Source: a virus
Taxonomy: Duplodnaviria > Heunggongvirae > Uroviricota > Caudoviricetes
Virus record (IMG/VR): IMGVR_UViG_3300009169_000014
Coordinates: 44,741-108,740 of that record
Length of the DNA stretch: 64,000 nucleotides
Reading direction: 5' to 3' (one strand)
Part shown: positions 10,927 to 39,705 of the stretch, piece after piece
Layout of the letters: every line of letters starts with the position of its first letter
How positions within the stretch are numbered: position 1 is the stretch's first letter
Notes under the pieces: generated by a model
What the model was told of the DNA's origin: nothing
Database searches by the model: none
Seen by the model: only the letters and a program-made list of their open reading frames with translations
Position numbers and translations under genes: made by a program

Positions 10927-11535
10927 TTAAGGAATTGCTCCACCGCCGCCTCCTTCGCAGAACATCATGCGACGCAGATCGTCTGCATGCTGCTGGTCGG
11001 TGAAGACCATCTGTTCGAGCATGACCTTGAGCGACAGATTCTCCCCCGCCATGAGGGAGAGGTTTCGCAGCTCCTGGATGATCTGCTTCTCCGCCTGGAG
11101 CAGGACCATGAACATCTGGTGCAAGTCGTTGATGTCGGGGATGGTGCTCACCTTCGGAGTGGGCTCACCGCCCAACGCCGTGATCTTCATCGTCAGGTGG
11201 TAGGCGTCCTGACGCTCTTCGTCGGCGTGCTCTTTGAAGTGGTCGTAGATGACATCCCGGAAGTGCGCCCGGATCCGGTCACCGTAGTTGATGTACATCA
11301 TCATCATCGTGTACTTGAGCTTGAGCAGCTTCACGCACTGGCCGACGACCTTCTCCTGAGGAACTGCGAACAGCCCCTCCTCGGGAGACACCGCCAGCGG
11401 GTGAACGCCCTCCGAAGCGGTTGGCTGGGGGAGAGGAACAACAGCGCCAGCGGCTTCGGTGGCTTGGGCGTCAGGGGACTGCACCTGCTCTGGAGGCACC
11501 TCGATGCCGTCAACTGCGATCTTGTAACGAGACAT
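10927..11535 (-). CDS. Dps/ferritin-like protein with N-terminal extension (202 aa)
   Basis: …RIRAHFRDVIYDHFKEHADEERQDAYHLTMKITALGGEP… fits the Dps helix pair (lH..fee…iD.lAERi..LGG.P). Its start overlaps the RNAP stop at 11535. Confidence 0.5.
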   Translation of the reverse strand: MSRYKIAVDGIEVPPEQVQSPDAQATEAAGAVVPLPQPTASEGVHPLAVSPEEGLFAVPQEKVVGQCVKLLKLKYTMMMMYINYGDRIRAHFRDVIYDHFKEHADEERQDAYHLTMKITALGGEPTPKVSTIPDINDLHQMFMVLLQAEKQIIQELRNLSLMAGENLSLKVMLEQMVFTDQQHADDLRRMMFCEGGGGGAIP

Positions 11536-14500: not shown

Positions 14501-16346
14501 CCTTGTCGTTCGTCCCCGTGCGTACATCACCAGGCTCGAGCTCGATCTTCATGAGCAGGCCGTTGATGGTCTTCTGTCGTTTGACGGCGCCGCCACGCTT
14601 CTCGAACGAATTCTTCTCAATCCCAAAGTCTTCTGCGTGCTTCTTCCCAGTAGGGTCGATGTAGATGTACTGCCCGTCGACCTTCACAACCTTGCCTGCG
14701 ACGGGAGACGACGGGAGCTCCAGCATCGCGAGTGCCTTCTCCCAACTCGAGAAGACCTTGCCCGTCGCATCAGCGACACCCGACTGCACTAGGGGTGCTT
14801 CTCGGTGCACGAGCGGGAGCGCCTGCGTCATCGACTTGCCTCCCATGATGCCGCGGTTCCCCTGCACGGACTCCAAAAAGGGAACGAGGTTCGTGGCGGG
14901 AGAGTACAAGTCTGAAGCATCACTGATCTCGTGCGTAACCTCCGACCATGGAACGCGCTCCATCTTCCCGTACTTCATGACCGCGACGACCCCAAAGTGC
15001 TTCTGCCTCGGGAAGGCGACGACTGCCCGACTCATCCGCGCTGCGGACAGAAGCTCCGACTTACCGGTCTTGACGTCCCGCACCATGGAGTACAGGTTCC
15101 CCTTGGGGTCCCGGTGCGCGAACATCGAAGTACGGATGTCGATACCGGCGCGGAACGTCTCGGACGTTCGCACAGGATCAAGGATACCAAGGTGGCTCGA
15201 GTGAATCGCCCGAGCCTCGCCAGGGATTGCACGCTCGTTGGCGATGCCACCCTCGCCCAAGGAGGTCACCCGCACCGCGTGGTCAATGGCCTCCATCGGG
15301 TTGATGTGCGTTGGGATCGAGCTCAGCTGCGATCCTGTGAGGAAGCTTCGAATGCCCGCGGAAAAAGGAGAAGGCGGAAGAATGGTCCGGAGTTCCGTCT
15401 TGTGCGTGGCCCTCCCCTTCACCTTACTGGCGAGCGCCCGAGCATCCAGGGTGATGCGCTCTTTGATGAAGTCGTCGACCGAGTGGTACGTCTTGAACCG
15501 TAGAGCGTCTCGGTCGTCAGTGTCCTCGTTGTTCTTGTAGACGCTGAGGAGGCGCTTCGACGCCACCAAGAGAGACTGCGGAGTGACGCTGGAGAACTCG
15601 TGGCCCAGTGTCTCCTTGGTAACCTCAGGGTCCATCGCCGTAGCGGCGTAGGCTGTCCTGATGGCAGCGAGCTGCGACTCCGGGTCCTTTGCCATCCGCT
15701 TCGAAGGGTGCACCAGCTTCTCGTAGAGCTTCGACAGATTCTTGTCGTGCTTCCCTTCAAACGCAGACTCATTCTGCTTCGCAACGTCGGAGCCCCAGTG
15801 CGAAGAAATGTCCGTGTGTGGTACTCCCAGCTTCCGGAGTACTGAGTAAAGTGGAATGGACGTCGTGCCGTACTCGATGTACGGATGCCCCTGCGTCGGA
15901 TCCATCGACAGCCGGAAGTTGGACCCCTTCGACAAGTTGAAGGCGGCCTCCAGATCTTCGTTGCCGCGGCGACGGGTGTATACGCCCGGCTTCAGACGGA
16001 GTTGGTTAGAGACGTTGTACTCGTTGCCGTCCAAGATGAAGGTGTGCCGCCCCGTGAAGTAGGGCAGGTTAAGCAGAGTGAAGTTCTTTACCCGCTCGAG
16101 CTCCTTCCCGTCGGCCCCCCGGAGGATGACCGTCCCCTTCACAGGCTCAAAAAGAGACCCACCGCTGAGCAAAGCGCTCTTCTGATCGTGCGGACCGAAG
16201 TCCCTCTCGTGCACCTTGAGATCAACGACCTCGATTTTCTTGTCCCGAAGTGGAAGGGGAAAAGCTGTACGCAGCGCATCAAGCGCTTTCGAGCGGATTT
16301 GAATCCGCCGCGACTCGGGGTCGGTCATCACAGGCGTGAGCTGCAT
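11535..16346 (-). CDS. DNA-directed RNA polymerase, fused beta subunit plus beta-prime N-terminal portion (through the catalytic NADFDGD region)
   Basis: Beta motifs: MRVGDKLTGRHGNKGVVS (GDK…GRHGNKGV) and KAVGKMEFNALVAHNARNVLKE (GGQRFGEMEVWALEAYGAA). Beta-prime N-terminal motifs: WSHIELAEPMVNP (GHIELA.PV), VLPPIMRPIL…LYQSLMLHNRSL, and NADYDGD at 11797-11817, followed by 87 aa to the stop. The track ORF extends to 17171, but the first 275 aa are Arg-rich junk. The real start is proposed at the ATG at 16346 (MQLTPVMTDPESRRIQIRSK…). Confidence 0.85.
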   Translation of the reverse strand: MQLTPVMTDPESRRIQIRSKALDALRTAFPLPLRDKKIEVVDLKVHERDFGPHDQKSALLSGGSLFEPVKGTVILRGADGKELERVKNFTLLNLPYFTGRHTFILDGNEYNVSNQLRLKPGVYTRRRGNEDLEAAFNLSKGSNFRLSMDPTQGHPYIEYGTTSIPLYSVLRKLGVPHTDISSHWGSDVAKQNESAFEGKHDKNLSKLYEKLVHPSKRMAKDPESQLAAIRTAYAATAMDPEVTKETLGHEFSSVTPQSLLVASKRLLSVYKNNEDTDDRDALRFKTYHSVDDFIKERITLDARALASKVKGRATHKTELRTILPPSPFSAGIRSFLTGSQLSSIPTHINPMEAIDHAVRVTSLGEGGIANERAIPGEARAIHSSHLGILDPVRTSETFRAGIDIRTSMFAHRDPKGNLYSMVRDVKTGKSELLSAARMSRAVVAFPRQKHFGVVAVMKYGKMERVPWSEVTHEISDASDLYSPATNLVPFLESVQGNRGIMGGKSMTQALPLVHREAPLVQSGVADATGKVFSSWEKALAMLELPSSPVAGKVVKVDGQYIYIDPTGKKHAEDFGIEKNSFEKRGGAVKRQKTINGLLMKIELEPGDVRTGTNDKGEKWEKKMYVAYGHIPKTVGDDGETVDIYLKEEGTFDNVYIVHQRKKDGSHDEDKCMVGFDSKDAAKDAYEKHGPPWGYGSLTEYTWDEFKDDYLSERGREKAAAEKDLLRIPYEDNFPFASKTYLHHDLLVKPGDHVDANQRLADSNFTRDGAFALGRNMTIGYVPYYGMNSNDAVVISEGAADKLTSEHMYKEVLEVERDATLGREIHRQYYGPKYMADQYRKLDTNGVVRKGTKVMPHDLLIAGVTRGKLSASDMLLSNLKKTLVHPYRELVRTWDHDFEGEVMDVHVTDRRVVVTVRTKEPMRVGDKLTGRHGNKGVVSLIVPNHKMLQDEAGKPLDVLYTSAGVVSRINPAQILETCVAKVAKKMGKPIAVANFSGRDNVQWTKDLMKEHGVKDKETLFDPVSGKKIPNILVGPQYVLRLFKTTETNFAARGTGAYDVNQQPIKGGDEGAKAVGKMEFNALVAHNARNVLKETASIKSQKNDEFWKAVQLGLPLPPLKASFAYDKFIGMLHGAGVKVDTRGSLSTLMPLTDNDITRMSAGAVQNEKLVRAKDLAPERGGLFDPAVTGGPDGTRWSHIELAEPMVNPIFAEPARRLLGMASKDFDAYRFQSGGSALKQRLNGIDVKARLKEVRASIKSLNGVKLDDAVKQLKFLEALDKQNLRPGDAYVLSKMPVLPPIMRPILAGKSGSELVVGDSNYLYQSLMLHNRSLQTQVDKPVLPPDEHSKLRQNLFLAVGAAVGTHESDNPKLQKRNVKGLLEHLTGKTTPKSSFFQKKIMKRQQDISGRGTIAPDGSLGMDEIGLPEDMLWGMYGKFIIGRLIRRGFNAVRAKEMLDEKHPAARDAMMAELKERPVMVNRAPTLHRYGFVGANPVPVAGKTIRVNPFIEQGMNADYDGDTFQIHVPILPAAVAEVKGMTLSNLLFSDREQNSLMVAPRMEAMLGVHLATKAEGSVNGQTHKFKTKADAMAAYKRGEIGLHTKVEVG

Positions 16347-16430
16347 GTCCGTAAGTATAGCCCTGAAATTGGTATTAGTAGTTGAGCCCCACTGACGGGG
16401 CTTTGACGCAGTACCACGCGAGGGGAACAA

Positions 16431-17213
16431 ATGGCCAACAAAGTAGCGGGGAAGACGAAGAAAAAGAAGGTCGTAAAACGAGCGGCGCCTCCGATCCACA
16501 AGGAGGAGGCATCGTTCCTCATCGACGTCCGAGAGATTCCACCGGACAAAATCCTCCGCGCTTCGCTCGTCTGTGAAGTTGACGACCGAAAACGGTGGGA
16601 TGCGATGAGCGAGGGGATGGTGGCGAACCAGTTGCCGAGGATCGCCCGCATCGCAGCCACGCTGACCAACACCAAGGCGCGTTGCCACTTCTGCAACAAG
16701 CCGCAGGAACCGCTCTCCAAGGAGCGGATGTTTCATTTCAGCAGCGACTACAAGTTGTGCGAGTGCTTGATGGTTCTTCGCAAGCGCCCGTACGAGTACA
16801 TCCCGGGGTGGAGTCATCCTGAGAAGCTGAAGCAAATTCTCAGTCAAGTGGAAACCGGCGAGCTGCTTCCAGTGGCGCCGGTCTACCAAATCGTATGCCA
16901 CTGCGGAGAAGGCCCTGTCGTTGTTAACGCGGGACTGATCGCACAGAGCGTACTGAAGTTCGGAGCGCACGCGCGAAAGAGGCAATGTGATCGGTGCCAC
17001 TTGAAACACATGCGGGCGAAGGTCCGCCCCAATGCGCCGTTGCGTGCGCCCGTGTCGGAACTCATCGCTGTTCCTCAGGACGGGCCCGGTGGCAAGTTCA
17101 AGAGGAACCGCAAGAAGGGGCACCAGGGACCGCGGCAGGGGGCCGTGATCATCCCAGAGGGTAGCCTTCAACCTTTGACCGCGCTCGAGAAAGCGCCTGA
17201 GACACCTGCTTGA
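16431..17213 (+). CDS. Cys-rich (zinc-finger-like) basic protein, 260 aa
   Basis: A GAGGGGA Shine-Dalgarno lies 6 nt upstream of the ATG. The N-terminus is Lys-rich and there are multiple CxxC/CxC pairs (CHFCNK, CECLMVL, VCHCGEGP, RQCDRCHLKH). It is divergent from the RNAP gene. Confidence 0.5.
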   Translation: MANKVAGKTKKKKVVKRAAPPIHKEEASFLIDVREIPPDKILRASLVCEVDDRKRWDAMSEGMVANQLPRIARIAATLTNTKARCHFCNKPQEPLSKERMFHFSSDYKLCECLMVLRKRPYEYIPGWSHPEKLKQILSQVETGELLPVAPVYQIVCHCGEGPVVVNAGLIAQSVLKFGAHARKRQCDRCHLKHMRAKVRPNAPLRAPVSELIAVPQDGPGGKFKRNRKKGHQGPRQGAVIIPEGSLQPLTALEKAPETPA

Positions 17214-23915: not shown

Positions 23916-24872
23916 ATGGCTACCGCCGAGACACCCGTGTCATCTGAAGAGACCCCCGAAGCCGTCATCGCCGCCGTAGCACCGAAGGCGGCTTCCCCGC
24001 TGGCCACCAATCGCTTCGTGGAGCTGCCCGTCAAGGACATCGTCACCAAGGCGGGCGACAACATCCGCAGCGGGGAGCTTCCGGAAATCGAAGAGCTCGC
24101 CAAGAGCATCAAGGCTGAAGGGCTCGTGGAGCCCATCGTCGTCACCATGTCAGAGACGCCGGGGAAGTACACCGTCGTCGCCGGACACCGACGCCTCACC
24201 GCGGTACGCAGCTTGGAGTTGGCGACCATCCCCGCGATGATCGTCGACGCTGACGTGAACCGTCGCATCAAGCTGGCGCTCATCGAGAACATCCAGCGCA
24301 AGGACATGGCCCCGTTGGACAAGGCCAAGGCGTTCGCGAAGCTCATCAAGAACACCGGGCTCGAGCAGCAGCAGGTGGCGGAGGCCATCGGCATGGCGCC
24401 GGGCTACGTCTCGCAGTACCTCGCTCTGCTGGAACTGCCGGAGTCCGCTCTCAGCGCCCTGCGCGACGGAGAGCTGTCGTTCACGCAGGCACGGGCGCTG
24501 TGCCGCCTCCTGCCCAACACCAAGGCCATCGACGACCTGGTGTTCGAAGCGAGCGATCTGACGGTCGCGGCGATGGAGGCAAAGATCGCCCACATCCTCG
24601 GAACCACCGAGGCCGCGGCGGAGGAAGAAGAGGAAGAGGAGGACGGGGAGGCCAAGCCCAAGAAGAAGAAGGCGGCGAAACCCGCTCCGTCGGAGAAGGC
24701 CATCGAGTACTACGTCGACGCCGAATTCCACCCTCTCAAGAAGGATGACATCCGCGAGCTGATGGTCAGCTACAAGCGAAAAGAGGTCAACGCCGACACC
24801 GCGAAGAAGCGGGAGGAGTACCGGCTGATCCTCAAGGGGATCACCCTCGCGGCTGACCTGCGGCTGAAGTAG
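23916..24872 (+). CDS. ParB/Sulfiredoxin-like N-terminal domain protein (ParB-like nuclease or partition protein)
   Basis: …VEPIVVTMSETPGKYTVVAGHRRLTAV… carries the GxRR ParB box. The HTH-like segment is …GLEQQQVAEAIGMAPGYVSQYLALLELP. The C-terminus has an acidic Glu run and a KKKK tail. Confidence 0.7.
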   Translation: MATAETPVSSEETPEAVIAAVAPKAASPLATNRFVELPVKDIVTKAGDNIRSGELPEIEELAKSIKAEGLVEPIVVTMSETPGKYTVVAGHRRLTAVRSLELATIPAMIVDADVNRRIKLALIENIQRKDMAPLDKAKAFAKLIKNTGLEQQQVAEAIGMAPGYVSQYLALLELPESALSALRDGELSFTQARALCRLLPNTKAIDDLVFEASDLTVAAMEAKIAHILGTTEAAAEEEEEEEDGEAKPKKKKAAKPAPSEKAIEYYVDAEFHPLKKDDIRELMVSYKRKEVNADTAKKREEYRLILKGITLAADLRLK

Positions 24873-25706
24873 CTACTCCGCGAAAACGTCCCTGGTGGCT
24901 GATACGTGATTGGCCACCAGGTACATTTTCAACTGCGCCATCGTATTTTTCTTGATCTGCCGTACCCGCTCAGAGGATAGGTCCAAGCGGTTCGAAATTT
25001 GTCGGAGGTTCTTAGGATCCTCCCGTGCTCCGAAGTACGCCAGCACGATGTACTTGTCTCGCTCCCGTAGGGCGAGCTCATCCAGGGCCTGCCGCAGAAG
25101 TGTAAAGCCGTATGTGTTCACGAAGTCCCGCTCAAGGACATCGTCGCTGTGCCCAGCCGCGTCGATGGACTCCACGGTGTCCAGCGTCACATGAGGAGCT
25201 TCAACGTCCGTCCCACTACCGTGCTTTCGCTGAGCGCGCAGGGCCTTCTGCTTGTGCGCTGGGACACGAATGATCCCCTGACTGTCGAGCTCTTCCAGAA
25301 TCTTCTCTCGGACCCACCAAGCGGCGTACGTCAAAAACTTGGTGTTTCGGGAGGAGTCAAAACGATCCGCGGCGACAAGCAGTCCGATGTTACCGGCGGA
25401 GATGAGAGTAGTAAGAACGTCGTTGTCGAAGTTGGGCCCCTTCGTACGGTAGGCGTACTCTTTGGCGACCTTCACGACGAAACGAAGAGCGCCGGAGATG
25501 AGACGGTCACGGGCCTTAAAGTTGCGAGGAGCCTTGCACTTGGCGCAATGCGTGGCTGAAGACCCAAGGGCGTATGACGCACGGCACGAGGGGCAGGTAC
25601 GGTAGCTCTTGACGAGTTCCTGCTCTTCCTTCTGGGGAATGAACACGTTACCGCGTAAATCGGTGAAGTAGGCCGCGATGACACGGTCGTTATCGGTCGA
25701 GCTCAT
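24873..25706 (-). CDS. Sigma-70 family RNA polymerase sigma factor (regions 2 and 4) with zinc-ribbon insertion
   Basis: Region 2-like: VVKVAKEYAYRTKGPNFDNDVLTTLISAGNIGLLVAADRFDSSRNTKFLTYAAWWVREKI. Region 4 HTH: LSSERVRQIKKNTMAQLK. The N-terminal CPSCRA…CAKCK is a Zn-ribbon-like insertion. It is the only minus-strand gene within the + strand block. Confidence 0.7.
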   Translation of the reverse strand: MSSTDNDRVIAAYFTDLRGNVFIPQKEEQELVKSYRTCPSCRASYALGSSATHCAKCKAPRNFKARDRLISGALRFVVKVAKEYAYRTKGPNFDNDVLTTLISAGNIGLLVAADRFDSSRNTKFLTYAAWWVREKILEELDSQGIIRVPAHKQKALRAQRKHGSGTDVEAPHVTLDTVESIDAAGHSDDVLERDFVNTYGFTLLRQALDELALRERDKYIVLAYFGAREDPKNLRQISNRLDLSSERVRQIKKNTMAQLKMYLVANHVSATRDVFAE

Positions 25707-26936: not shown

Positions 26937-27797
26937 GTGCCGATGCGGGGCTCCTGCAATGTCGGGGAGCCTCCATCGGTTTACTCGTCGACCTTTGGTG
27001 ACCCCATGGATCTAGTCATCCCTGAGTATGTTCAAAAAAACGGTCCGTGGTCTTTCTCCAAGGCCGGGGTCATCTCGAAGTGCTCGCTGCAGTACGACTA
27101 CAAGTACGGCGCGCAGAAGCGGCCAGAGGAGCCTCGAGCGTCATCTGAGGACAGCCGCATCGGCGTCGCCGTGCACAAGGCGCTCGAGTTCGCGCTCGAC
27201 AACATCCCCACCAAGAAGGCGTTCCAGTTCGCCATCGACCAAGGGGAGTTGACCACGGACGAGAGTGAGAAGGTGATGAGCTTCTTCGACCAGGTGGATC
27301 GGTTCGTGAAGCGCATCGCAGCCTTCAAGGAGAAGCACGGGGTTCGCCCACAGAACGTACTCATCGAGTACAAGATCGGAATGGGCGCGGACTTCAAGAG
27401 CTGCCAGTTCTTCGACAAGACCGGGCTCTTCCGCGGCGTACTCGACTTCACCATGCTCACAGCGCGTGGGGACGCGGTCGTCATCGACCACAAGTCGGGC
27501 AAGCAGAAGGACATGAAGCACTACGAAGACCAGTGCAAGGCCTACTGCGTCCTGGCGCTGGCATTCCGTCCTGAGCTCAAAGGCGTACAGACGGCCATCA
27601 ACTTCGTTCAAACGGATCAGCTGCTGTGGAACCCCCGCGTCACGGCGGAGACAATCCGCAACGAGTACCACCCGTGGCTCGTCAAGTTTCTCGCAGACTC
27701 CTGTGCCGGTCTCCAGAAACCCCCTGAGCCCCAAGAGGGCTGGTGGTGTGACTGGTGCGGGTACAAGGGGGTCTGTCCCAAGTTCACCAACAAATAG
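26937..27797 (+). CDS. Second PD-(D/E)XK nuclease, Cas4/RecB-like, with C-terminal CxxC-x5-C
   Basis: …GVLDFTMLTARGDAVVIDHKSGKQKD… parallels the motif of the first nuclease (ID..K(S/T)GK). The C-terminus is WWCDWCGYKGVCPKF. Start may be GTG at 26937 or ATG at 27006. Confidence 0.6.
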   Translation: MPMRGSCNVGEPPSVYSSTFGDPMDLVIPEYVQKNGPWSFSKAGVISKCSLQYDYKYGAQKRPEEPRASSEDSRIGVAVHKALEFALDNIPTKKAFQFAIDQGELTTDESEKVMSFFDQVDRFVKRIAAFKEKHGVRPQNVLIEYKIGMGADFKSCQFFDKTGLFRGVLDFTMLTARGDAVVIDHKSGKQKDMKHYEDQCKAYCVLALAFRPELKGVQTAINFVQTDQLLWNPRVTAETIRNEYHPWLVKFLADSCAGLQKPPEPQEGWWCDWCGYKGVCPKFTNK

Positions 27798-27805
27798 GAG
27801 TGCTC

Positions 27806-30778
27806 ATGCCGAAGCCGCATGCGTGCTGTGCGGGGTGCCCGCGGGAAAACCCCACGAGCACGCACTCGCACGGGTACGCTGTTTCGCCCATTGCCTCTGA
27901 CGCAAACCTCATCATCATCGCAGAGAATCCCGTCTGCGACCGCTACGGAAAATTCTCCACAGCGTTCGACGATGACAGCGGAAAGATCATCAAGAAGGCT
28001 GTCGCGGAGCTGAAGAGACGTGAAGAGTACCGCGGGCTGAAAGTCGCCTACAGCTACGCAGTCCGCTGCACCTGCAACCAAGGGGATAAAGAGCCCCCGA
28101 AAGCAGTGCTGGAGAAGTGCAGGACAATTCTCCAAGAGGAGCTCACCCTCACACGACAGAAGCCCGTCCTCTTGCTCATGGGGATGACTGCGCTCCGTGC
28201 CCTCGATATCAAGGCAGCGAAGCTGAGGGACATGCAGGGGCGTTTGCTCTCCCAGCAGGTTGTGGGCAACATCTTGACCGGGGAGCAGCGCTTCGACACG
28301 GTCATCACCATCTCGACGAAGCAGTTGGTCGCCGTCCCAGGGCTCTACACAACGTTCACAGCCGACCTTCAAAGGGCCGCGGACGCTGCTCGCTCTGGGG
28401 GGCTCTCCACCGTACCTGCGCTCGACGCGCTGACGAAGAACTACCGCCTCCCGACGACAGTCGAAGAGGTCAGGGCGGTCTGCCAAGAGATCCTCAACTA
28501 CGCGGAAGGAAACGTAGCGCCAGAGAACTGGCCCATCTCAGTGGACACGGAGACCAACACCAAGTTTCCGCACAGAGACAAGCTGAAGGTGCTGGCGGTC
28601 TCTTTCGCGTGGGCAGAGGGGAAGGCGACGGCTATCCCGCTGTGGCACCCAGAGGTCCAGTACGACCCGAAGGAGGTCGTGCCGTACATCCTCGAAGTAC
28701 TGAAGAGCAAGAAGCCGAAGTTCTTCCACAACGCCAAGTTCGACCTCAAGGTGTTCATGAAGGTCGGGTGGGAGTTGGTCAACTTCATCTGGGACAGCAT
28801 GACTGGCGAGCATGCGCTCGAGGAAGACAAGAAGGGCCAGTACGGCTTGAAGCCGCTGACCCGGACCAACTTTCCGGACTTCGCTTCGTACGCAGACTCC
28901 CTGCACGAGATCCTCACAAAGGAAGAGGGGGACTCGCAGCTCCACAACCTCCGTAAGGTGCTCAAAGCCACCGTCACGGGCGGTCGGAAGAAGAAGGCGG
29001 GAACAGAGAATGATGGCGGGTTCGAAAAGATTCCGCTGGCCACACTGATGCTCTACGCGGCGGTCGACGCGGACATGACTCGAAGGCTCGTCTACCTCCA
29101 AGAAAAGAGAATCCTCGCGGAACAGAACACCGTGATTGGGACCCAAAACCGAACGGTGCGAGAGCAGGCGCTGGCTGCATCGGGAAAGCAGAAACTGGAA
29201 GAACGGGCGCGGCCCAACACAGAGGAGCTGGATGCGATGATGAAGCATCCCGTTGCTCACCCGATCCCCAAGCTCTGTGACGCTGAGCGGCCTGTTCGGC
29301 GATTGGCGCTGAAGAACATCTTCCCCGTCACTCCTTCCCTCGCGGCCATGGAGTTCAGGGGGATTCGCATCGACCGCCCCTACCTCACGACGCTACAAGC
29401 GGACCTGGGGAAGGTGGTGCAAGAAGCCACGGAACAGCTGTACGCCATGGCGGGCGGGGAGCTCAAGCTCAACAGTCCCGCGGAGATTGCGCGGGTCTTG
29501 TTCGACACGGGGTTCACGCACCCCGACACGCAGGTGCTGACGCGGTACCCGCTAGCGGGCATCTCGAAGACAAAGACGGGGCAGACACAGACTACCGAGA
29601 AGGTCATGCAGTTCCTGGTGGCACGGTACGGATGCCCCTTTGCGTCCAAGAAGCTGATCTACGCCAAAGCGTTCAAGGCGAAGAACACCTTCTGTCAGAA
29701 CGTGGCGGACCTCTCAGAGCTCGATGGGTACCTGCACACCAACTACAACCAGCACGGCACGTCTACGGGGCGGCTCTCATCCAACGATGAGAACATGCAG
29801 AACATCCCGAAGAAGCTGGCGGGCGTGAACATCAAGAAGGTGTTCATCCCAGACGACGACTCGTACCTTTTCGTCAACGCGGACGCAAAAGGCGCAGAGG
29901 TCCGAATCCTCACGGCCTACTGCAAAGACCAAGCGTTGATTGACTCACTGAACGCAGGGCAGGACACGCACTGCTTCATCGCTTCAAAGATCGTGGAGAT
30001 CGTACGCCAGAGTCCGGGCGCTGCTGACGTGCTGGCCAGCATGAACCTGGACGACCAGTACCTTCTGACGTACGACGACTTCGCCAACAGAGGGAAGATC
30101 GAGAACACGAACGCGAAGTACGGAAAGATGCTGGACAAGTTCCGAACGGCGGTGAAGCGCGTTGTGTTCGGGATCTTGTACGGCGCGGGACCTCAGAAAA
30201 TCGCGGAGACAATTGGTATCAGCTTGGGACAGGCCCAACAACTCATCGACATGCTGTTCACACTGTTCCCATCGATCAAAACGTACATGGCCCAGACGAA
30301 ATGGGAGCTGCAGACGTTTGGATTCGTGGAGACGTTCTTCGGACGCCGCCGTCGTTTTAGCGTCATCGGTGCGCCCAAGTACCTCATGGGCAAAGCCGAA
30401 CGACAGACTGTGAACTTCAAGATTCAGAGCACGAGCTCTGACATCGTCATGGGGCGCTTGGTAGCGCTCGAAGGTCCCCTTCGGGACATGGGTGGGCGGC
30501 ACCTGCTGACCGTGCACGACAGCCTCGGTTTTCAGATCCTCAAGAAGTACGCCTCGCAACTGCCGGACTTCATCTATACGCACCTCGAGAAGGGCGCGGC
30601 TGACCAACATCCCTGGCTTCCTGTCGCCTTCAAGTGGGACTACGAAGTCGGCCCGTCATACGGAGAACTCAAGTCACTCGATGCTTACCTAGAAAATATC
30701 GCGATCAAGGAGTACTCAAACGATGCCGCCGAAGCCTACACGGAGGAAGAAGTCCGGACCGCGCTTGCCGAAGTTTAA
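27806..30778 (+). CDS. Family A DNA polymerase (PolA-like) with N-terminal uracil-DNA-glycosylase-like domain
   Basis: An AGGAG RBS lies 5 nt before the ATG at 27806. N-terminus: CAGCPRE…ANLIIIAENPV (UDG family 4-like GEAPG-type motif). Pol motifs: motif A FVNADAKGAEVRILTAYCKD (DYSQIELR-like), motif B RTAVKRVVFGILYGAG (RRxxKxxNFGxxYG), motif C LLTVHDSLGFQ. A 3'-5' exo-like region lies between. Confidence 0.85.
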   Translation: MPKPHACCAGCPRENPTSTHSHGYAVSPIASDANLIIIAENPVCDRYGKFSTAFDDDSGKIIKKAVAELKRREEYRGLKVAYSYAVRCTCNQGDKEPPKAVLEKCRTILQEELTLTRQKPVLLLMGMTALRALDIKAAKLRDMQGRLLSQQVVGNILTGEQRFDTVITISTKQLVAVPGLYTTFTADLQRAADAARSGGLSTVPALDALTKNYRLPTTVEEVRAVCQEILNYAEGNVAPENWPISVDTETNTKFPHRDKLKVLAVSFAWAEGKATAIPLWHPEVQYDPKEVVPYILEVLKSKKPKFFHNAKFDLKVFMKVGWELVNFIWDSMTGEHALEEDKKGQYGLKPLTRTNFPDFASYADSLHEILTKEEGDSQLHNLRKVLKATVTGGRKKKAGTENDGGFEKIPLATLMLYAAVDADMTRRLVYLQEKRILAEQNTVIGTQNRTVREQALAASGKQKLEERARPNTEELDAMMKHPVAHPIPKLCDAERPVRRLALKNIFPVTPSLAAMEFRGIRIDRPYLTTLQADLGKVVQEATEQLYAMAGGELKLNSPAEIARVLFDTGFTHPDTQVLTRYPLAGISKTKTGQTQTTEKVMQFLVARYGCPFASKKLIYAKAFKAKNTFCQNVADLSELDGYLHTNYNQHGTSTGRLSSNDENMQNIPKKLAGVNIKKVFIPDDDSYLFVNADAKGAEVRILTAYCKDQALIDSLNAGQDTHCFIASKIVEIVRQSPGAADVLASMNLDDQYLLTYDDFANRGKIENTNAKYGKMLDKFRTAVKRVVFGILYGAGPQKIAETIGISLGQAQQLIDMLFTLFPSIKTYMAQTKWELQTFGFVETFFGRRRRFSVIGAPKYLMGKAERQTVNFKIQSTSSDIVMGRLVALEGPLRDMGGRHLLTVHDSLGFQILKKYASQLPDFIYTHLEKGAADQHPWLPVAFKWDYEVGPSYGELKSLDAYLENIAIKEYSNDAAEAYTEEEVRTALAEV

Positions 30779-31064
30779 GCCGATTCAGGACGACATCCTC
30801 GACGAATGGAAGGACACCCTCGTAAAGGTGTTCACGGTGACAGGGGGATGCTTGACGGGGCGACTCATCAAGTATGACCACAAGTCACTGATCATTTCAC
30901 CCAAAACCTGTGTGCAGCGGAAGCACATAGTCTCGCTGTACCAGGCCAACAATGCTCCCGACAAACAAGCCGCAGGACCTGCTGTTCGTGGACACCGAAA
31001 CGACGGGGCTCGACCCCACGAAACACGAGCTGCTGGAAGTCGCAGCGATTCGAACGAGTCCTGA
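30723..31064 (+). CDS. Doubtful small ORF overlapping the PolA end and the DnaQ start
   Basis: The first about 75 aa are protein-like (…DDILDEWKDTLVKVFTVTGGCLTGRLIKYDHKSLIISPKT…). The tail is Arg/Gly-rich and overlaps the DnaQ gene in another frame. Confidence 0.2.
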   Translation: MPPKPTRRKKSGPRLPKFKPIQDDILDEWKDTLVKVFTVTGGCLTGRLIKYDHKSLIISPKTCVQRKHIVSLYQANNAPDKQAAGPAVRGHRNDGARPHETRAAGSRSDSNES

Positions 31065-31524
31065 CGGGAAGACCGTCATCAAGACGTACGAAGCAAAGCT
31101 GAAGCCGCTCCACCTCGAGACTGCGGAGCCGAAAGCTCTCCAGGTCAACAACTACAAGCCTGAGGAGTGGACGGACGAGAAGTGCGTGAAGCCTGAGCTC
31201 GTTGTGGATGCGCTTCAGCAGATGGCGGGCAACACGGTGCTGGTCGGACAGAACGTCTCGTTCGACGAGGGCTTCCTCACGCCGCTCTTCACGAGGCTGA
31301 AGATGAAGGCCCCCTGGGGCTACCACAAGGTCGACACGGTGGCGCTGGCCTGGCCGCTGTTCTGCTACACGGGGCTGCCCGGACTGAGCCTCGAGAAGCT
31401 GTGTACGTTCCTCGGAGTCACTGAGATGCCGAAGCACCGAGCGATGGCCGACGCTGAGGCCTGTCGCCAGGTGTACTTGAGTATAATGGGGCGCTGGACA
31501 GCGGTAGTGGCGCCTACGAAGTAA
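30952..31524 (+). CDS. DnaQ-like DEDDh 3'-5' exonuclease
   Basis: Exo I motif LLFVDTETTGLDP at the N-terminus. Exo III-like …HRAMADAEAC… near the C-terminus. Confidence 0.8.
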   Translation: MLPTNKPQDLLFVDTETTGLDPTKHELLEVAAIRTSPDGKTVIKTYEAKLKPLHLETAEPKALQVNNYKPEEWTDEKCVKPELVVDALQQMAGNTVLVGQNVSFDEGFLTPLFTRLKMKAPWGYHKVDTVALAWPLFCYTGLPGLSLEKLCTFLGVTEMPKHRAMADAEACRQVYLSIMGRWTAVVAPTK

Positions 31525-31529
31525 ACGCT

Positions 31530-32320
31530 TCAAAAAGATCTTGCACCGGTACCTATCCGGCGTCTCCGTAGTGGAGACATTTCCCTCCCGGTGGTCTCCT
31601 ACAGCCTAGCTGAACGGAGACCAGGATGTCCTCGAGGGAGACGTCGTCGATGAGCTGAGGGTGGTTTCGTTATGCAGCGCCATCGCCGAGCTCTTCAGAC
31701 ATGTTGGAACTCAGAAGATCTGCTTTACCTTTCCTGCACCGGTACCTATCCGGCGTCTCCGTAGTGGAGACATTAACCCGTCCGGTCGGCGCGCAGCCTA
31801 GCTGCTTTGCCGACACCGAGGGTCATCATGAACGCGGCGCCGTCGTCGAGCTCCTCCTTCATCTCGAACACCCCAGTCCTGGACCAGGCTCATCGATAGA
31901 ACACAGAGGAAAAAACGTTGTGAACTCTTGCTCCGGTACCTACCCGGCGTCTCCGTAGTGGAGACAATGAGGCCGTGGGTGATACGCAGAGCCTAGCTCT
32001 CGCTACACCCAGGATGTTTTCGTACGGCCGTGCTTCGACGAGGTCCTCCTCGAAGATGTTCGCCGCGGCCGCCTCGAGCTGCTGCAGATGATAAAACAAA
32101 GAAGAGTTCTGTAGAACCTGGTGATTCGATCAGGTGCTGTACGCACCGACCGCGTAGTGCGGTCTTTTGCTCCAAAGCTACCCTCGAGATATTTCCCTGG
32201 GGTGTGAGGAAATATCATCACAGGAGTCACCACGTGCCGCAGGTTCGGATCAGAGGTGATCCTCACCTACGCGCTAAGGAGTCACCACCATCGTGCCGCG
32301 GCCTCCGGAGCCTAGCTCCT
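31530..32320. repeat. Non-coding repeat region: three roughly 193-bp-periodic modules, each with a GATCT box, a conserved 38-nt box carrying the hairpin GTCTCC-N5-GGAGAC, and a downstream AGCCTAGCT box. A second repeat family AGGAGTCACCAC…CGTGCCGC occurs 3 times
   Basis: 38-nt boxes at 31542-31579, 31735-31772 and 31931-31966 (tgcaccggtacctaYccggcgtctccgtagtggagaca). GCCTAGCT at 31604, 31795, 31991 and 32310. AGGAGTCAC at about 32222, 32277 and 32357. The region lies between the convergent DnaQ and terminase genes. Confidence 0.6.
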
Positions 32321-32367
32321 GCTTCTAGTCGGCCGCGAGCTGAAGCCAAGCTTCTTAGGAGTCACTA

Positions 32368-33984
32368 TCAGGCGTAAAACTTCAAGTCGTTGAGGACAAG
32401 CTTGTGCGCGAACCAGCCAAATAGCTGCGCGTGCAAGCAGTCATCGGGAAGCTGTGGGCTGTGGCGCCACACCTTTTTGCCGGCGAGGGTGACCTCTTCG
32501 TAGATGTTGAGGATGTCCTTGATAGGCTCCCGCATCTCTTCACGCGGGGGATAGATGACAGCGCCCCGCTTGAGGTACATGAGAAAGTTGTCGATGAGCG
32601 TAGTGCGGTCGGCGAGGTACCGGTCAAGTCCGTTGTGCTTGATCGGTTGCCCCAGCGCACCGTACTGAACCATGTGCACGCGGTGATGCCCGAGACGCTC
32701 ACGCAGTGTTGCGTTGGGCAGGGCGCCTTCACCAGCGTCACCGATGACCATGGCCACAGAGTACTGCTGGCAAATCTTGGCGATGTCCTCGACGTCCGTG
32801 ACGGCGTTGTTGCCAGGGTAGATGCGGTAGTACAGCGTCCGCAGCTTCTGCTGCCCCGGGACAAAGCCCCAGATCCACAGCACGGTGCGGCTCACCCCAG
32901 AGGTCCCCCCGCCTGACCAGTCGACGCCAGCGACGGTGAGGCTGCAGCCGTTCATGTTCGTATTGGGAGTGGGGGAGATGGACGGACCAACACAGAGGGC
33001 CTCAAGCTCCTCCAAGGAGATGAGACGACGACCGATGGCGTCAGAGACACCCAGCACCTCGTTGCGGAACTTCGCAGACGAGAACATGTCGTGGTCGCGA
33101 AGGATGTCGTTCCAACGGTCCTGGGCGTCCTTCACGGCGTTAGGCTTCTCCGGAGTGTTTTTTACGCACGACGGAATGTTCAATGGCATGATCAGCTGAG
33201 GAATGTGGAACCCCTTCACGGAATGCCGTCCCGTGTCCGGGTCCACCTTCTTCATGTCGATCCACTGCCCCGTTCGGGGGTTCAACACGTGCCCGCAGTT
33301 GAGGCAGATGGGGCCGTGCTTACCCAGGGACTTCTCTGAGACGACGAAATTGTACTTGCTGCAGCCCTCGCACTTCATCACCCACTCGCTCTGAGACGAC
33401 TTGTCCCAGAGGTACTGGATGCTGGCTTCCATCGTCTTCGGCGTGCCTGCGTAGGTCTCAAACCGGTAGTTCGAGTTCTTCATGCAGGCGTTGATGACAG
33501 GGACCACCGAGTCGTACAGCATGTCCTGAAACTCATCGTAGCTGACGCGGTCAGCGGAAAAGCCTCGAGCGCGGTCGGCGTCGTCACAGGCGTAGGTGAA
33601 CGCGTTCTCAGAGCCGTTGGTGTACGACCGGTGGAGCACGCGGTCCGCGTGTTCCGGGGACTGGAAGTACTTCTTCACGATGGGGGAGTAGGAGAGCGTT
33701 TTCCCGACGCGCGTATTAGAGAAGATCAGCGTCTGTTCTTTGGACGGAGAGACGTAGTACTCACGGAAGAACGGGATGGCCACCGACTCCGCGATGATGA
33801 AGTTCGCTAAGGAGGTGCTCTTTGCCACCTGCCGCCCACACATCAGGAGGGTGGACTTGTAGCGCCCGTTGTAGATCTGTCGGTACATCGGATAGTCGTT
33901 CAAACTGAACGGCGCGCCGTCCAACCAAAGCAACCGCTCAGCGACATCCGACAGACGTTTCGTAGCAATGTTCAGGTCCATCAA
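32368..33984 (-). CDS. Terminase large subunit
   Basis: N-terminal ATPase with Walker A (MCGRQVAKSTSLANF). C-terminal nuclease-like region (…VMKCEGCSKYNFV…, …MVIGDAGEGA…). The size of 538 aa is typical. Confidence 0.85.
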   Translation of the reverse strand: MMDLNIATKRLSDVAERLLWLDGAPFSLNDYPMYRQIYNGRYKSTLLMCGRQVAKSTSLANFIIAESVAIPFFREYYVSPSKEQTLIFSNTRVGKTLSYSPIVKKYFQSPEHADRVLHRSYTNGSENAFTYACDDADRARGFSADRVSYDEFQDMLYDSVVPVINACMKNSNYRFETYAGTPKTMEASIQYLWDKSSQSEWVMKCEGCSKYNFVVSEKSLGKHGPICLNCGHVLNPRTGQWIDMKKVDPDTGRHSVKGFHIPQLIMPLNIPSCVKNTPEKPNAVKDAQDRWNDILRDHDMFSSAKFRNEVLGVSDAIGRRLISLEELEALCVGPSISPTPNTNMNGCSLTVAGVDWSGGGTSGVSRTVLWIWGFVPGQQKLRTLYYRIYPGNNAVTDVEDIAKICQQYSVAMVIGDAGEGALPNATLRERLGHHRVHMVQYGALGQPIKHNGLDRYLADRTTLIDNFLMYLKRGAVIYPPREEMREPIKDILNIYEEVTLAGKKVWRHSPQLPDDCLHAQLFGWFAHKLVLNDLKFYA

Positions 33985-34010: not shown

Positions 34011-35285
34011 ATGAGCAACGCGGCACAGGACAAAGTCGTACAGGGAGAAGCGTACTGGGATCGCTACTCGATTCCCAGGATGACGCTCCACGAGGCGATG
34101 TGGCAAATCGACCTCAGCCTCGAGCAGGAGCAGACCCGTGGCGTCTGGTGCCTCATCTCCGAAGCCGGAGAGGGGAAGTCCCAGGGGATTCACCAGCTGG
34201 CCCGGAAGCACGGAAGGCGTGTCGTCGACATTCGCACGTCGCAGTTCTCCATGATTGGCGCCGGTGTTCCGCAGCGCGCTGATGAGACGGGGCACTTCAA
34301 AATCGCCATTCCGAATGACTACCCGAAGCCGGGGGAGAAGTGTGTACTCATCTTCGATGAAATCAACCAGGGCCAGCAGCATGCGATTGCGCTCTTCTTC
34401 AAGTTTCTCGAGGACCGCGGGATCTACGACTACACCCTACCCGATGACTGCGTGATTGTCGCGCTGATGAATCCGTCGACGGCGGGATACAACGTCACGA
34501 AGATCGAGACCAACTCCGCGTTCAACCGCCGCCTGATGAAGGCATACGTGTACAACACGTTCTCCGACTGGAAGAAGCACGCGCAAACCAACGATTTCCA
34601 CTTCACGGACGGACTCGAGAAGCCGTGCCACCCGATGGTGCTGCGGCTGCTCACGGCGACTCCGGCGATGCTGTACACCGCCAAGGACCGCGACGGGAAC
34701 AAGCAGTTCGCCTGCCCTGCTACCTGGCAGACGGTGTCGCTGTCGCTCTACAACCTCGAGGCGGCCAAGGTCGACCTCACCAGCGAGAAGGCGGAGAACC
34801 GAATCGCGGCGTCCATCAACACGGTGAACGCCAGGACCCTCGCCGAGTTCATCAAGAACAACGAGATCCTCATCGGGCCGGAGGAGGTGCTCTTCAAGTA
34901 CAAGGAGAAGAGCAAGCTCCGTGAGCGCGTGCTGGCCCTCCAGAAGGAAGCAGGGGGCACCTACACCCAGCTGGTGCAGGACGTCGCCCAGCACATCTTC
35001 CGGGAGCGCCCGGATGCTGAGCTCATCGCACCTCAGCTCGTGCGGTTCTGGCATGACATGCCGGTGGAGCAGGCGCAGCCGTTCTACCAGATGCTTGACG
35101 CAGCGTGTCAGGCGCACGGAGGGATTGGGGAGCCGAAGAACCTGGCCTACATGCAGGCATTGACGATTGCAAATCGTCAATATCCGCAGTGGAAGGAGAT
35201 CAACGACCGCATCAACCGCATCCACGACGAGATGGAGAAGAAGGTCCACGGACGGGGTCAGACCAAGGATCCGATGGAGGCTTAG
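34011..35285 (+). CDS. MoxR-like AAA+ ATPase
   Basis: Walker A-like ISEAGEGKSQGIHQLARK, Walker B VLIFDEINQGQQ, and sensor region. It starts 27 bp from the divergent terminase start. A vWA partner lies downstream at 38065. Confidence 0.7.
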   Translation: MSNAAQDKVVQGEAYWDRYSIPRMTLHEAMWQIDLSLEQEQTRGVWCLISEAGEGKSQGIHQLARKHGRRVVDIRTSQFSMIGAGVPQRADETGHFKIAIPNDYPKPGEKCVLIFDEINQGQQHAIALFFKFLEDRGIYDYTLPDDCVIVALMNPSTAGYNVTKIETNSAFNRRLMKAYVYNTFSDWKKHAQTNDFHFTDGLEKPCHPMVLRLLTATPAMLYTAKDRDGNKQFACPATWQTVSLSLYNLEAAKVDLTSEKAENRIAASINTVNARTLAEFIKNNEILIGPEEVLFKYKEKSKLRERVLALQKEAGGTYTQLVQDVAQHIFRERPDAELIAPQLVRFWHDMPVEQAQPFYQMLDAACQAHGGIGEPKNLAYMQALTIANRQYPQWKEINDRINRIHDEMEKKVHGRGQTKDPMEA

Positions 35286-38064: not shown

Positions 38065-39705
38065 TTGAGCTCTCACAACGACGAGAATGAGCTCGCGAAG
38101 TCCCTGGTTTACTGGGTATCGCGACGCGGAGCAAACAACTACTGGGCCACGCTCATCAATGGCTGCGACAAGAAGTACACCAACGAAGACGGTACGATGT
38201 CGGTCCAGCTGGCGCCGAATTGGCGCTACCTACTGACCTGCCACCTGCCGTTCTTCGAGAAGTGCTCGCCGGAAATGCGCCTGTTGGTTCTGGTGCACGA
38301 GGCGGCGCACATCGCGCTGAATCACATCCCTCGCCTGTTCAAGCTGCTGGCGAACTGCACGGACCCGTTCGTGCGCAGGGCGATTCTAGCCACCTTCAAC
38401 TGGGCCGCGGACTTTGCAGCCAACGACGCCATCGTGCGGCTCGAGCCTGGATTCGAGAAGGCGCACAAGGCGTTCATGCACGTCGGCAAAAACGGAGAGA
38501 TGGTCAATGTCACCGAGGAAGAAATCGAGAAGCTCCCTGGTGAGTTTCCGTTCCTGCTGCCCGAGGAGTGGGGCTTCCCCAAGGGTCTCTCTATGGAGGA
38601 GTACTTCATCCTCATCCTGAAGGACCTGCCGAAGTTCAAGCAGAAGGTCGAGCGGATGATGGAGGACCTCAAGCGACAGCTGGAAGAGATGGGAAAGAAC
38701 GGAGAAGGCGAGCTTCCCTCGGAAGAGGAAGGCGACGTAATGGCTTCCCCGTTTGGCCGCGGGAAGAGTGGGCTGCCCAACAGCGTTCCGGGTCTTCCGG
38801 AGTCGTTGATCGGCCACGCCATCAATTCTCCTGAAATCTTCGACATGATGCAGAAGGCCTTCGACAAGATCTCCGGAAATTCGCACAAGCAGTGGAACGA
38901 GAAGGCTGAGGGGATGACGCCTGAAGAGGCCATCTCCGCTGGGTCGAAGATGAAGAAGCACGCCCAGCAGCTGGCTCGCTCTGCGAACGAGCGCGTCCAT
39001 CGGGACCGCGGGTACATGTCGGGGAATGTTCAGCGCATCATCGACGCGCTGCTCGAGCCTGAGCAGCTCCCGTGGGACATGTTCCTGCGTGACATCATCC
39101 AAGGCGCCATCACCGCCCGCGTGATGGAGGAGATGACCTCTCCCAACTTGTCGCTCATCAACGAGGACTACCTCGAGCCCTGGCCCGGCCAGACGCTGGA
39201 GTTCGGCTTCAACATCACCTGGATGACGGACACGTCTGGGTCGATGGGTGACGACGAGTACGCCCGTGCCTGCGCCTGCATCAACTCACTGCTGGCCCAG
39301 AACAAGTCGGTCTTCGTGACCTACTGCGAGTGCGACGCGGCCATGCAGAAAGAAGTGAAGGTCACCAACGTCGAGCCTCCGACTGAGGAGTACATCAAGG
39401 AGCTCCAGAACCGCCGTGGCCATGGGGGCACGGTCTACACGCCGTTCTTCAAGCGAGTCGCCGGGGCGGACAGCCCGGGGGATTGGGTGCGCAATGCGCC
39501 CAGGCTCGAGGACAAGCACCCGAAGCCGGACCTGATGGTCATCTGCACCGACGGCGGTGTGGGCCTGATGGGCGAGTGCTTCCCGCAGTACCAGCCTGAG
39601 TGCCCCATCATCTGGCTGCTGATGCCTGGGTGTCACCCCTGCGAGGGCATGGACAACATCGCACCGAATCGGTTGATCGAGATGTTCAAGATGAAGGAGG
39701 AGTAA
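38065..39705 (+). CDS. Putative zinc metallopeptidase (HExxH) fused to a C-terminal von Willebrand factor A domain
   Basis: LVLVHEAAHIALNHIP carries HExxH. The vWA MIDAS motif is ITWMTDTSGSMGDDEY (DxSxS), with …TDGGVGLMG downstream. It pairs with the MoxR ATPase at 34011. Confidence 0.65.
   Translation: MSSHNDENELAKSLVYWVSRRGANNYWATLINGCDKKYTNEDGTMSVQLAPNWRYLLTCHLPFFEKCSPEMRLLVLVHEAAHIALNHIPRLFKLLANCTDPFVRRAILATFNWAADFAANDAIVRLEPGFEKAHKAFMHVGKNGEMVNVTEEEIEKLPGEFPFLLPEEWGFPKGLSMEEYFILILKDLPKFKQKVERMMEDLKRQLEEMGKNGEGELPSEEEGDVMASPFGRGKSGLPNSVPGLPESLIGHAINSPEIFDMMQKAFDKISGNSHKQWNEKAEGMTPEEAISAGSKMKKHAQQLARSANERVHRDRGYMSGNVQRIIDALLEPEQLPWDMFLRDIIQGAITARVMEEMTSPNLSLINEDYLEPWPGQTLEFGFNITWMTDTSGSMGDDEYARACACINSLLAQNKSVFVTYCECDAAMQKEVKVTNVEPPTEEYIKELQNRRGHGGTVYTPFFKRVAGADSPGDWVRNAPRLEDKHPKPDLMVICTDGGVGLMGECFPQYQPECPIIWLLMPGCHPCEGMDNIAPNRLIEMFKMKEE

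Follow-up and report, generated by a model that had tools for sequence, protein, structure and literature searches.

A tandem array of covarying folded units, possibly a set of sibling RNAs, at a conserved position beside an Hfq gene in uncultivated jumbo phages

The stretch of 64,000 nucleotides analysed here (the window; positions 44,741 to 108,740 of the IMG/VR virus record IMGVR_UViG_3300009169_000014, Caudoviricetes) is part of a jumbo-phage genome whose closest relatives are IMG/VR contigs of 188-190 kb. Between its convergent genes for a DEDDh exonuclease (+ strand) and the large terminase subunit, terL (- strand), lies a gap of 843 bp (31525-32367), delimited by open reading frame (ORF) maps and by Pfam and PHROG matches, which is bounded by the two stop codons and holds no credible gene, as the initial annotation had recognized in calling the region non-coding. 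Each repeated box in this gap is the 5' part of a longer unit (about 186 nt) folding on the window's + strand, and units of the same architecture occur, in one to ten copies, at the same genomic position in other uncultivated jumbo phages with TerL proteins 64-90% identical to that of the window. The reading we favor, to which we give about even odds (a probability of roughly 0.5), is that the gap encodes four tandem paralogous structured RNA units on the + strand, which would form a trans-acting set of siblings built on a shared protein-binding scaffold.

Each unit is laid out in the same order. The 5' strand of a 7-bp closing helix, P1 (7 nt), is followed by an invariant G and by the hairpin P2 (CCGG-UACCUAU-CCGG); next come P3, a 6-bp hairpin with the loop G-UAG-U, that is, a triloop closed by G.U or G-C, and P4, a long hairpin whose lower stem covaries and whose apex is fixed as AGC-CUA-GCU. 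A fast-evolving variable arm, often with CUCGAGCUC, leads to the junction strand AAC-N-NAG, which is rich in purines, and the unit ends with the 3' strand of P1. Unit 1 (31536-31721, + strand as for all units; 186 nt) is closed by AGAUCUU (31536-31542) and AAGAUCU (31715-31721), with the G at 31543, P2 at 31546-31560, P3 at 31562-31578, the P4 apex at 31603-31611 and the junction AACUCAG at 31708-31714; it is supported by covariation, by a fold z-score of -3.1 and by 87.8 bits with R1, a covariance model of the 5' domain. Unit 2 (31729-31913, 185 nt; z = -2.2; R1 89.4 bits) has the P1 strands CUUUCCU (31729-31735) and AGGAAAA (31907-31913), whose outermost pair is C.A and which read CUUUCCU/AGGAAAG in its orthologues, with P3 at 31755-31771, the P4 apex at 31795-31803 and the junction AACACAG at 31900-31906. 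Unit 3 (31923-32108, 186 nt; z = -2.6; R1 95.5 bits) is closed by AACUCUU (31923-31929) and AAGAGUU (32102-32108), compensated to AAUUCUU/AAGAAUU in the orthologue of the relative L003, and has P3 at 31949-31965, the P4 apex at 31990-31998 and the junction AACAAAG at 32095-32101. Folding of each unit, which the initial annotation had proposed, gave a multi-helix junction closed by P1 as the unconstrained minimum free energy (MFE) structure of unit 1 and the same architecture, without constraints, in all four window units (z-scores of -2.2 to -3.1). For the whole gap the fold z-scores are -4.0 (+ strand) and -3.6 (- strand).

The array ends in a shorter terminal unit 0 (32121-32230; 110 nt when taken at its shortest), which R1 recognizes with 15 bits (E = 0.0036). 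Its P1 strands are GUGAUUC (32121-32127) and GAGUCAC (32224-32230), P2 lies at 32133-32147 and P3 (GACCGC-GUAGU-GCGGUC) at 32148-32164, and a further hairpin has a CUGGGGUG loop. This P1 covaries in orthologues, with GUGACUC/GAGUCAC in L089, GUGACUU/AAGUCAC in L098 and AGGGAUU/AAUCCCU in L090. The AGGAGTCAC repeats had been described as a second family; the three copies exist (at about 32222, 32278 and 32358), but they are not a separate family, AAG belonging to the junction of unit 0 and GAGUCAC being the 3' strand of its P1. The tail that follows (32231-32367) contains two more copies of this P1 3' strand (GAGUCAC at 32279-32285 and 32359-32365), and between these last two copies stands a P4-like hairpin, CGCGGCC...GGAGC-CUA-GCUCC...GGCCGCG, with its apex at 32309-32317. 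In L003 (7618-8030) and L004 the space between unit 0 and terL contains a small CxxC...CxxC Zn-ribbon gene on the array strand, with a lipoprotein gene after it in L003; both genes are missing from the window, L001 and L025, which have the P4-like hairpin in their place. The last AGGAGTCACC of L003 and L004 is the Shine-Dalgarno sequence of this Zn-ribbon ORF, which the window does not have, and the + strand is therefore the expressed one here.

The boxes from which the analysis started are real. Three near-identical copies of 43 nt begin at 31539, 31732 and 31926 (+), with 93-100% identity and spacings of 193 and 194 bp, and a 34-nt core of the box has three matches with up to three mismatches allowed, compared with 0.00 expected from 100 shuffles. 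The GTCTCC/GGAGAC inverted repeat of 6 bp with a 5-nt loop is present in all three as P3 of units 1 to 3, and a fourth hairpin with the same loop is the P3 of unit 0. AGCCTAGCT does occur four times, at the P4 apices of units 1 to 3 and of the tail hairpin, although the second of its coordinates in the initial annotation was off by one. An assembly collapse, raised there as a possible source of the periodicity, is excluded because the boxes recur in the relatives with compensatory changes in their stems, and at least 15 independent assemblies contain this array in diverged form.

Covariation supports the fold. An RNAalifold consensus of 18 units first revealed the closing helix joining the ends of each module of about 186 nt. 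When 22 units of the window clade were aligned, 99.6% of the cells at paired positions could pair, as against 82.2% after shuffling and 40-47% with slid partners; changes on both sides affected 13 of the 22 pairs (86 cells), and all seven pairs of P1 covaried. The P1 strands stand about 180 nt apart in each module and covary, which is not accounted for by promoters or by sites where a protein binds double-stranded DNA.

Wobble pairs indicate which strand folds. With helices chosen by their Watson-Crick count alone, the non-canonical pairs read on the + strand comprise 22 G.U or U.G and three A.C or C.A. The loop-closing pair of P3 is G.U in 17 units and G-C in five, and P2 adds three wobbles; because these would be A.C mismatches on the other strand, the + strand is the folding strand, and the orientation first proposed was right. 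An RNA in the terL sense (- strand) had initially been favored by MFE (-77.8 compared with -72.7 kcal/mol) and by the few G.U pairs in P4, and was dropped in view of the 22:3 wobble tally and the G.U/G-C alternation in P3.

A relaxed detector asked only for two Watson-Crick-complementary 7-mers separated by 80-240 nt, the first followed by a G and the second preceded by ARG, with a 6-bp hairpin close by. It returned 60 hits over 16 loci, a few of which were judged spurious. The units are often strung directly one after another along the gaps, the linkers measuring -6 to 17 nt. Elsewhere in the window it gave 15 hits in 127 kb (both strands), about 0.12 per kb compared with about 3.6 per kb in the arrays, a roughly 30-fold difference, and a strict detector had no hit outside the array in the 64 kb. 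Over the same 64 kb R1 recovered only the four units and one 12-bit match in a coding region (E = 0.036; the P2-P3 part, inside an ORF at 63544-63585, +), which is probably due to chance. The search for further boxes suggested by the initial annotation, run within the 64 kb, likewise found no other copy, and the ACUAC/GUAGU hairpin does not occur beyond this gap in the window, which disposes of a genome-wide terminator or processing motif. Detector hits and window-clade units together, with duplicates removed, amount to 65 distinct units with 41 different P1 5' strands and lengths of 97-198 nt (median 165). The C of the junction AAC is present in 62 of the 65, although no search required it. 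The invariant G is found in all 65, a figure to be read with the fact that the detector demanded it for most; in the window-clade search, where it was scored and not required, it is present in 22 of 22 aligned units.

TerL homologues 56-90% identical to that of the window are common in metagenomes, and their loci show how the units evolve. Close relatives (L001, L003, L004, L025, L099, L098 and L090) have the same boxes with compensated stems, the P3 stem GUCUCC/GGAGAC becoming GCCUCC/GGAGGC, GUCAGC/GCUGAC, GCCAGC/GCUGGC or GCCUGC/GCAGGC, which pointed to a folded nucleic acid. In clades at 64-76% TerL identity the units bear no sequence relationship to those of the window: the box is replaced and the fold is kept. 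For units from five distant genomes, MFE folding without constraints mostly gives the same helix order, and these distant clades have P3 loops of the form G-UAA-C or G-UAC-U and P4 loops CAAAGC or AUC-AUA-GAU. Gap length varies widely, from 156 nt in L089 through 496 (L090), 704 (L098), 817 (L099), 843 (window) and 984 (L095) to 1208 (L093), 1235 (L097), 1281 (L092), 1314 (L094), 1362 (L096), 1380 (L003, with the two small genes inside), 1524 (L091) and 1573 nt (contig of P0014). A pattern based on this type of unit also matches two further IMG/VR contigs, and in one of them, L101, six units form an array. When metagenome and genome collections were scanned with loose patterns, most matches were isolated and due to chance; L025, L037 and L044 were genuine. 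Among cultured phages the best TerL match is only 30% identical (Salmonella phage Arash), in a genome that has no such gap, and a search of a phage collection gave no DNA match to the locus.

Orthologous units keep both their order and the identity of their P1 strands (AGAUCUU, CUUUCCU, AACUCUU, GUGAUUC). Between the window and its relatives terL is 80-83% identical at the DNA level and the 5' domains of the units 69-97%, while the variable arms, at 47-63%, are near saturation except in L004. In that relative unit 3 is 97% identical to that of the window throughout, and the arm of unit 2 is 63% identical. The arms therefore turn over or are swapped rapidly, with unit length remaining constant.

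The surroundings of the array are conserved as well. Upstream, on the same strand, lie polA for a family-A DNA polymerase (27755-30778), with an N-terminal domain of the uracil-DNA-glycosylase superfamily; a small ORF for a phage Hfq homologue (30723-31064), identified by a profile of ten orthologues and by Pfam Hfq; and the gene for the DEDDh (RNase T / DnaQ family) 3'-5' exonuclease (30952-31524; Pfam RNase_T, 1.4e-22). Downstream and convergent is terL (32368-33984, -; PHROG 675, 1.4e-41; Pfam GpA_ATPase). Unit 1 begins 11 nt past the exonuclease stop, no terminator-like site was found between the two, and the array strand is the direction of the polA, hfq and exonuclease genes. The order TerL, gap, exonuclease, Hfq, PolA is kept down to 64% TerL identity; in L095 (56%), the exception, polA directly follows the gap. 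The Hfq profile matches more than 30 solved Hfq sequences at E < 1e-3 (best E = 1.5e-7), and Pfam Hfq is matched by six of the ten orthologues; Hfq and the exonuclease stand directly upstream of the array in the window and in the ten relatives examined for these genes. The window's Hfq ORF has a C-terminal extension of about 24 codons past the stop of its orthologues (...RPxVR-stop) and overlaps the exonuclease gene by 113 nt.

A MoxR-like ATPase (PHROG 1297; 34011-35285, +) and a DUF2201 VWA/metallopeptidase protein (38065-39705, +) are kept beside terL in all relatives. Further away, a single ORF of 1878 aa (11535-17171, -) joins the RNA polymerase beta subunit (Rpb2 domains 3 and 6) to the N-terminal part of beta' (Rpb1 domains 1 and 2), with an inorganic-pyrophosphatase-like insert (PF18823, 8.9e-32, residues 863-982); the remainder of beta' is a separate 599-aa ORF (8135-9934, -). 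A sigma-70-family factor with regions 2 and 4 (24873-25706, -) adjoins a ParB-like gene (23916-24872). The polA orthologue of L090 contains an intein, and intein/LAGLIDADG domains are present in some TerL homologues (P0011, P0026, P0051).

We suggest the following scenario for the function of the array. The units would derive from polA-hfq-exo operon transcripts, either by read-through or from the 3' ends, and the resulting sibling RNAs could act in trans, sharing a common scaffold (P1-P4 and the junction) and differing in the variable arm. The most economical candidate for a protein partner would be the Hfq homologue that the phage itself encodes two genes upstream, and the DEDDh exonuclease next to the array could trim 3' ends: NCBIfam models do not separate DNA from RNA as its substrate, and, given that the polymerase has a 3'-5' exonuclease domain of its own, the separate enzyme could have a role on RNA. 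The set might work as regulators, as decoys or as a sponge. More tentatively, and with somewhat less than an even chance in our estimate, the units would constitute a new class of phage RNA, a compact 4-5-way junction in one to ten tandem copies that acts in trans with the phage Hfq-family protein or another partner and so makes up a self-contained RNA system of a jumbo-phage lineage; its members might, for example, be decoys or regulators whose arms turn over rapidly under host-phage conflict. The retron-like geometry, in which a closing stem is followed by a G that faces a conserved purine strand, may leave room for priming or branching chemistry without precedent.

Several observations weigh against the proposal of trans-acting siblings. 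Transcription, processing and stability of the units are matters that we infer, and whole-array MFE values and z-scores do not distinguish the strands. The Hfq-array link is suggested by gene neighborhood; the AAC-N-NAG junction is a loose match to the (ARN)n site of Hfq, and the units have no U tails at their ends, so that the usual terminator hairpin of Hfq-dependent small RNAs (sRNAs) is missing. The gap of L095 is strongly structured (z = -6.5) with neither Hfq nor the exonuclease alongside, and the unit-detection rules picked out only one doubtful unit in it. The near-saturated divergence of the arms would suit a mere spacer as readily as an element that confers specificity. Finally, adjacent P1 strands overlap by 4-6 nt in some arrays (L093, L096), and therefore not every unit can hold its full P1 simultaneously on one transcript. 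Our confidence is moderate because of this overlap, the missing U tails and the inferred transcription. Two related observations should be mentioned. The sole terminator-like site is P3 of unit 0, whose U run is not kept in relatives; and in L093 (593-1003 in TerL-antisense gap coordinates) four consecutive units share closing-helix strands, with junctions alternating GUGCGUA/UACGCAC, each of which can pair with its neighbor on either side, so that the alternative P1 helices exclude one another.

An sRNA-target search yielded a single notable match, in which the unit 2 arm at 31851-31870 (+) complements 39683-39702 (+) at 19 of 20 positions (14 contiguous plus five; BLAST E = 0.011), around the Shine-Dalgarno sequence of a gene of 70 codons that starts at 39708; the complementarity is not kept in L004 and was given low weight.

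Among the other explanations, the one that survives best, though we consider it unlikely, is a cis-acting 3' untranslated region element comparable to REP/BIME sequences, which would shield the polA-hfq-exo transcript from 3'-5' decay, halt RNA polymerases converging from the terL side, or both. The array sits exactly between two convergent transcription units, just past the exonuclease stop, its copy number is free to range from one to ten, the variable arms are under little sequence constraint, and both strands fold well. For such a role, however, simple hairpins would suffice, and the P1-closed junction, the invariant G, the AAC-N-NAG strand and the fixed P3 and P4 loops would be unneeded, yet they are kept across 64-90% TerL identity; moreover, no U tracts follow the hairpins in relatives, and the hairpin type occurs nowhere else in the 64 kb.

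In retron msr-msd RNAs, inverted repeats flank the molecule, the first of them is immediately followed by a G, and the hairpins are conserved on the 5' side and variable on the 3' side. The geometry of the units matches this description, P1 providing inverted repeats of 7 bp in 41 distinct sequences with all pairs covarying, and it is conceivable that P1 corresponds to the a1/a2 stem and that the G lies beside a template strand, AAC-N-NAG, for synthesis resembling that of msDNA (multicopy single-stranded DNA) or for priming of the family-A polymerase. The neighboring polA, exonuclease and primase genes and a cumulative GC-skew minimum lying broadly at 14-30 kb would suit such primers. We regard this possibility as distinctly improbable: no RVT-family reverse transcriptase was found among the 29 window ORFs scanned or among genes within 3-6 kb of terL in 12 relatives, the G and AAG were partly imposed by the search rule, and we know of no tandem arrays of four to ten msr-msd units.

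Slightly more doubtful still is an array of aptamers or decoys, in which the units would be ligand- or sensor-binding domains and the copies would soak up a small molecule or a host defense protein. Aptamer domains typically look like this, with a junction closed by P1, conservation in its nucleotides and in the loops, and peripheral arms that vary, and the expansion in copy number would suit a stoichiometric sponge; against this, neither a riboswitch nor any other Rfam family matches, most units have no regulated gene downstream, there is no candidate ligand, and a sponge of the CsrA-binding GGA type was rejected by the counts given below.

The initial annotation had offered three readings of the region, an origin/pac site, promoters and a tandem small-RNA array, and the evidence fits only the last. 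A role of the + strand as single-stranded DNA in replication initiation or packaging, the form in which the origin/pac proposal can be retained, is in our view highly improbable; the position between the replication genes and terL would suit it, and G.T wobbles are tolerated in DNA hairpins too, but closing helices about 100-190 nt apart and 4-5-way junctions over 0.8-1.5 kb would demand long, persistent single-strandedness, copy number varies from one to ten, and neither iterons nor an AT-rich unwinding element is present. We see next to no chance that the boxes are promoters for the phage RNA polymerase and sigma factor, each driving a Ser-rich micro-ORF: the phage does encode both proteins and the box does contain TTGC(A/T), but the box is missing from the rest of the 64 kb and replaced in distant relatives where the pairing is kept, the only sigma-70-type site in 31000-33000, defined by -35 and -10 hexamers 16-18 nt apart, is on the - strand and outside the boxes (the sigma-70 consensus may not be that of the phage sigma), and the micro-ORFs, although present as strings, lose their ATG to ACG (unit 1) and CTT (unit 2) in L004 and to AGG (unit 3) in L003, in an indel-rich region where the variable arms differ from those of relatives by 9-33 gap columns (none for unit 3 compared with L004).

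Other candidates were examined and set aside. Rfam 15 gave no gathering-level match in the window and 11 relatives, the best sub-threshold hits in the gap having at most 18 bits and E of at least 1. ARAGORN found no tRNA or tmRNA in the 64 kb, and the arm order does not fit a tRNA-like structure with P2 and P3 as D-arm-like elements. Hammerhead, hairpin, twister, hatchet and other ribozymes and riboswitches had no Rfam match up to E = 10 and no core motifs on inspection. A sponge of the CsrB/RsmZ type, prompted by CAGGAUG after P4, was rejected because GGA motifs are not enriched (16 in the window array compared with 12.9 +/- 3.0 expected), and GGA is depleted in L092, L093, L096 and L097. A CRISPR array or an anti-CRISPR repeat mimic, which would have repeats of 23-50 nt alternating with spacers of about that size, does not fit the period of 193 nt, the repeat stems that vary between units and genomes, or the lack of cas genes; nor does a type III antitoxin array fit units of 97-198 nt beside exonuclease and terL genes, with no ToxN-like gene nearby. 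Small peptides on either strand, including a RiPP-like (ribosomally synthesized and post-translationally modified peptide) 'EELDD' motif on the - strand, are not conserved. A kissing interaction of the two loops, P3 (UAG) with P4 (CUA), is allowed by their complementarity in the window clade and shows no covariation in other clades.

Jumbo phages are noted for their protein machinery, such as their own RNA polymerases, nucleus-like shells and anti-defense proteins, and little is known of their non-coding RNAs. The locus described here is a well-supported RNA fold at one position across a diverse lineage of uncultivated phages, beside a phage Hfq gene. If the units bind the phage Hfq, they would form a virus-encoded system of chaperone and RNAs independent of the host's own machinery for sRNAs; as decoys or primers, they would instead represent a new RNA-based tactic in phage-host conflict or in replication. 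Their strong covariation and compact size (about 100-190 nt) make them suitable for probing, binding assays and structure determination.

The array can be compared with several known systems. LhrC1-5 of Listeria and the Qrr sRNAs of Vibrio are tandem sibling sRNAs that consist of simple hairpins with their own promoters and U-tailed terminators. Like these, the units are paralogous RNAs of about 100-200 nt, lying side by side, folding independently, with shared and diverged parts and variable copy number; unlike them, they abut, have no U tails, form a multi-helix junction closed by P1 and reach up to ten copies. They resemble retron msr-msd RNAs in size, in the closing stem, in hairpins that are conserved toward the 5' end and variable toward the 3' end and, as far as the search rule allows this to be judged, in the G that follows the first repeat; they differ in having no reverse transcriptase nearby and in forming arrays of one to ten, and to our knowledge nothing in retrons corresponds to the P4 apex or to the AAC-N-NAG strand. 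Sponges such as CsrB/CsrC/RsmZ and CrcZ likewise repeat an element many times, and their stoichiometric logic would explain the copy expansion, whereas the array repeats a whole folded domain in place of a loop motif and is not enriched in GGA. ToxI-type and CRISPR arrays also consist of tandem RNA repeats with a conserved hairpin at a fixed period in a setting of phage-host conflict; their repeats are short (about 36 nt), in contrast to units of 97-198 nt in which the conserved part is inside a larger fold and the 'spacer' is about 150 nt. REP and BIME elements similarly place stacked, stable hairpins between convergent genes, but REPs are palindromes of about 35 nt scattered in hundreds of copies, while the present element is found at one locus and has the long-range P1 pairing. 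ROOL and GOLLD are elaborate folds encoded by phages and prophages, the units being far smaller and without a match in Rfam, and tandem bacterial Y-RNA-like genes (two to four copies) have a 5'/3' closing stem as well, although no Ro/Rsr gene was seen here and they too give no Rfam match. A limited keyword check of the literature found no description of the fold, the array form or the Hfq link. Sibling sRNAs in tandem, sponges and retron RNAs are all familiar kinds of RNA; Rfam contains no description of the present fold, of its arrangement in arrays of up to ten copies or of the link to a phage Hfq, and there is a real chance that the array represents a new functional class.

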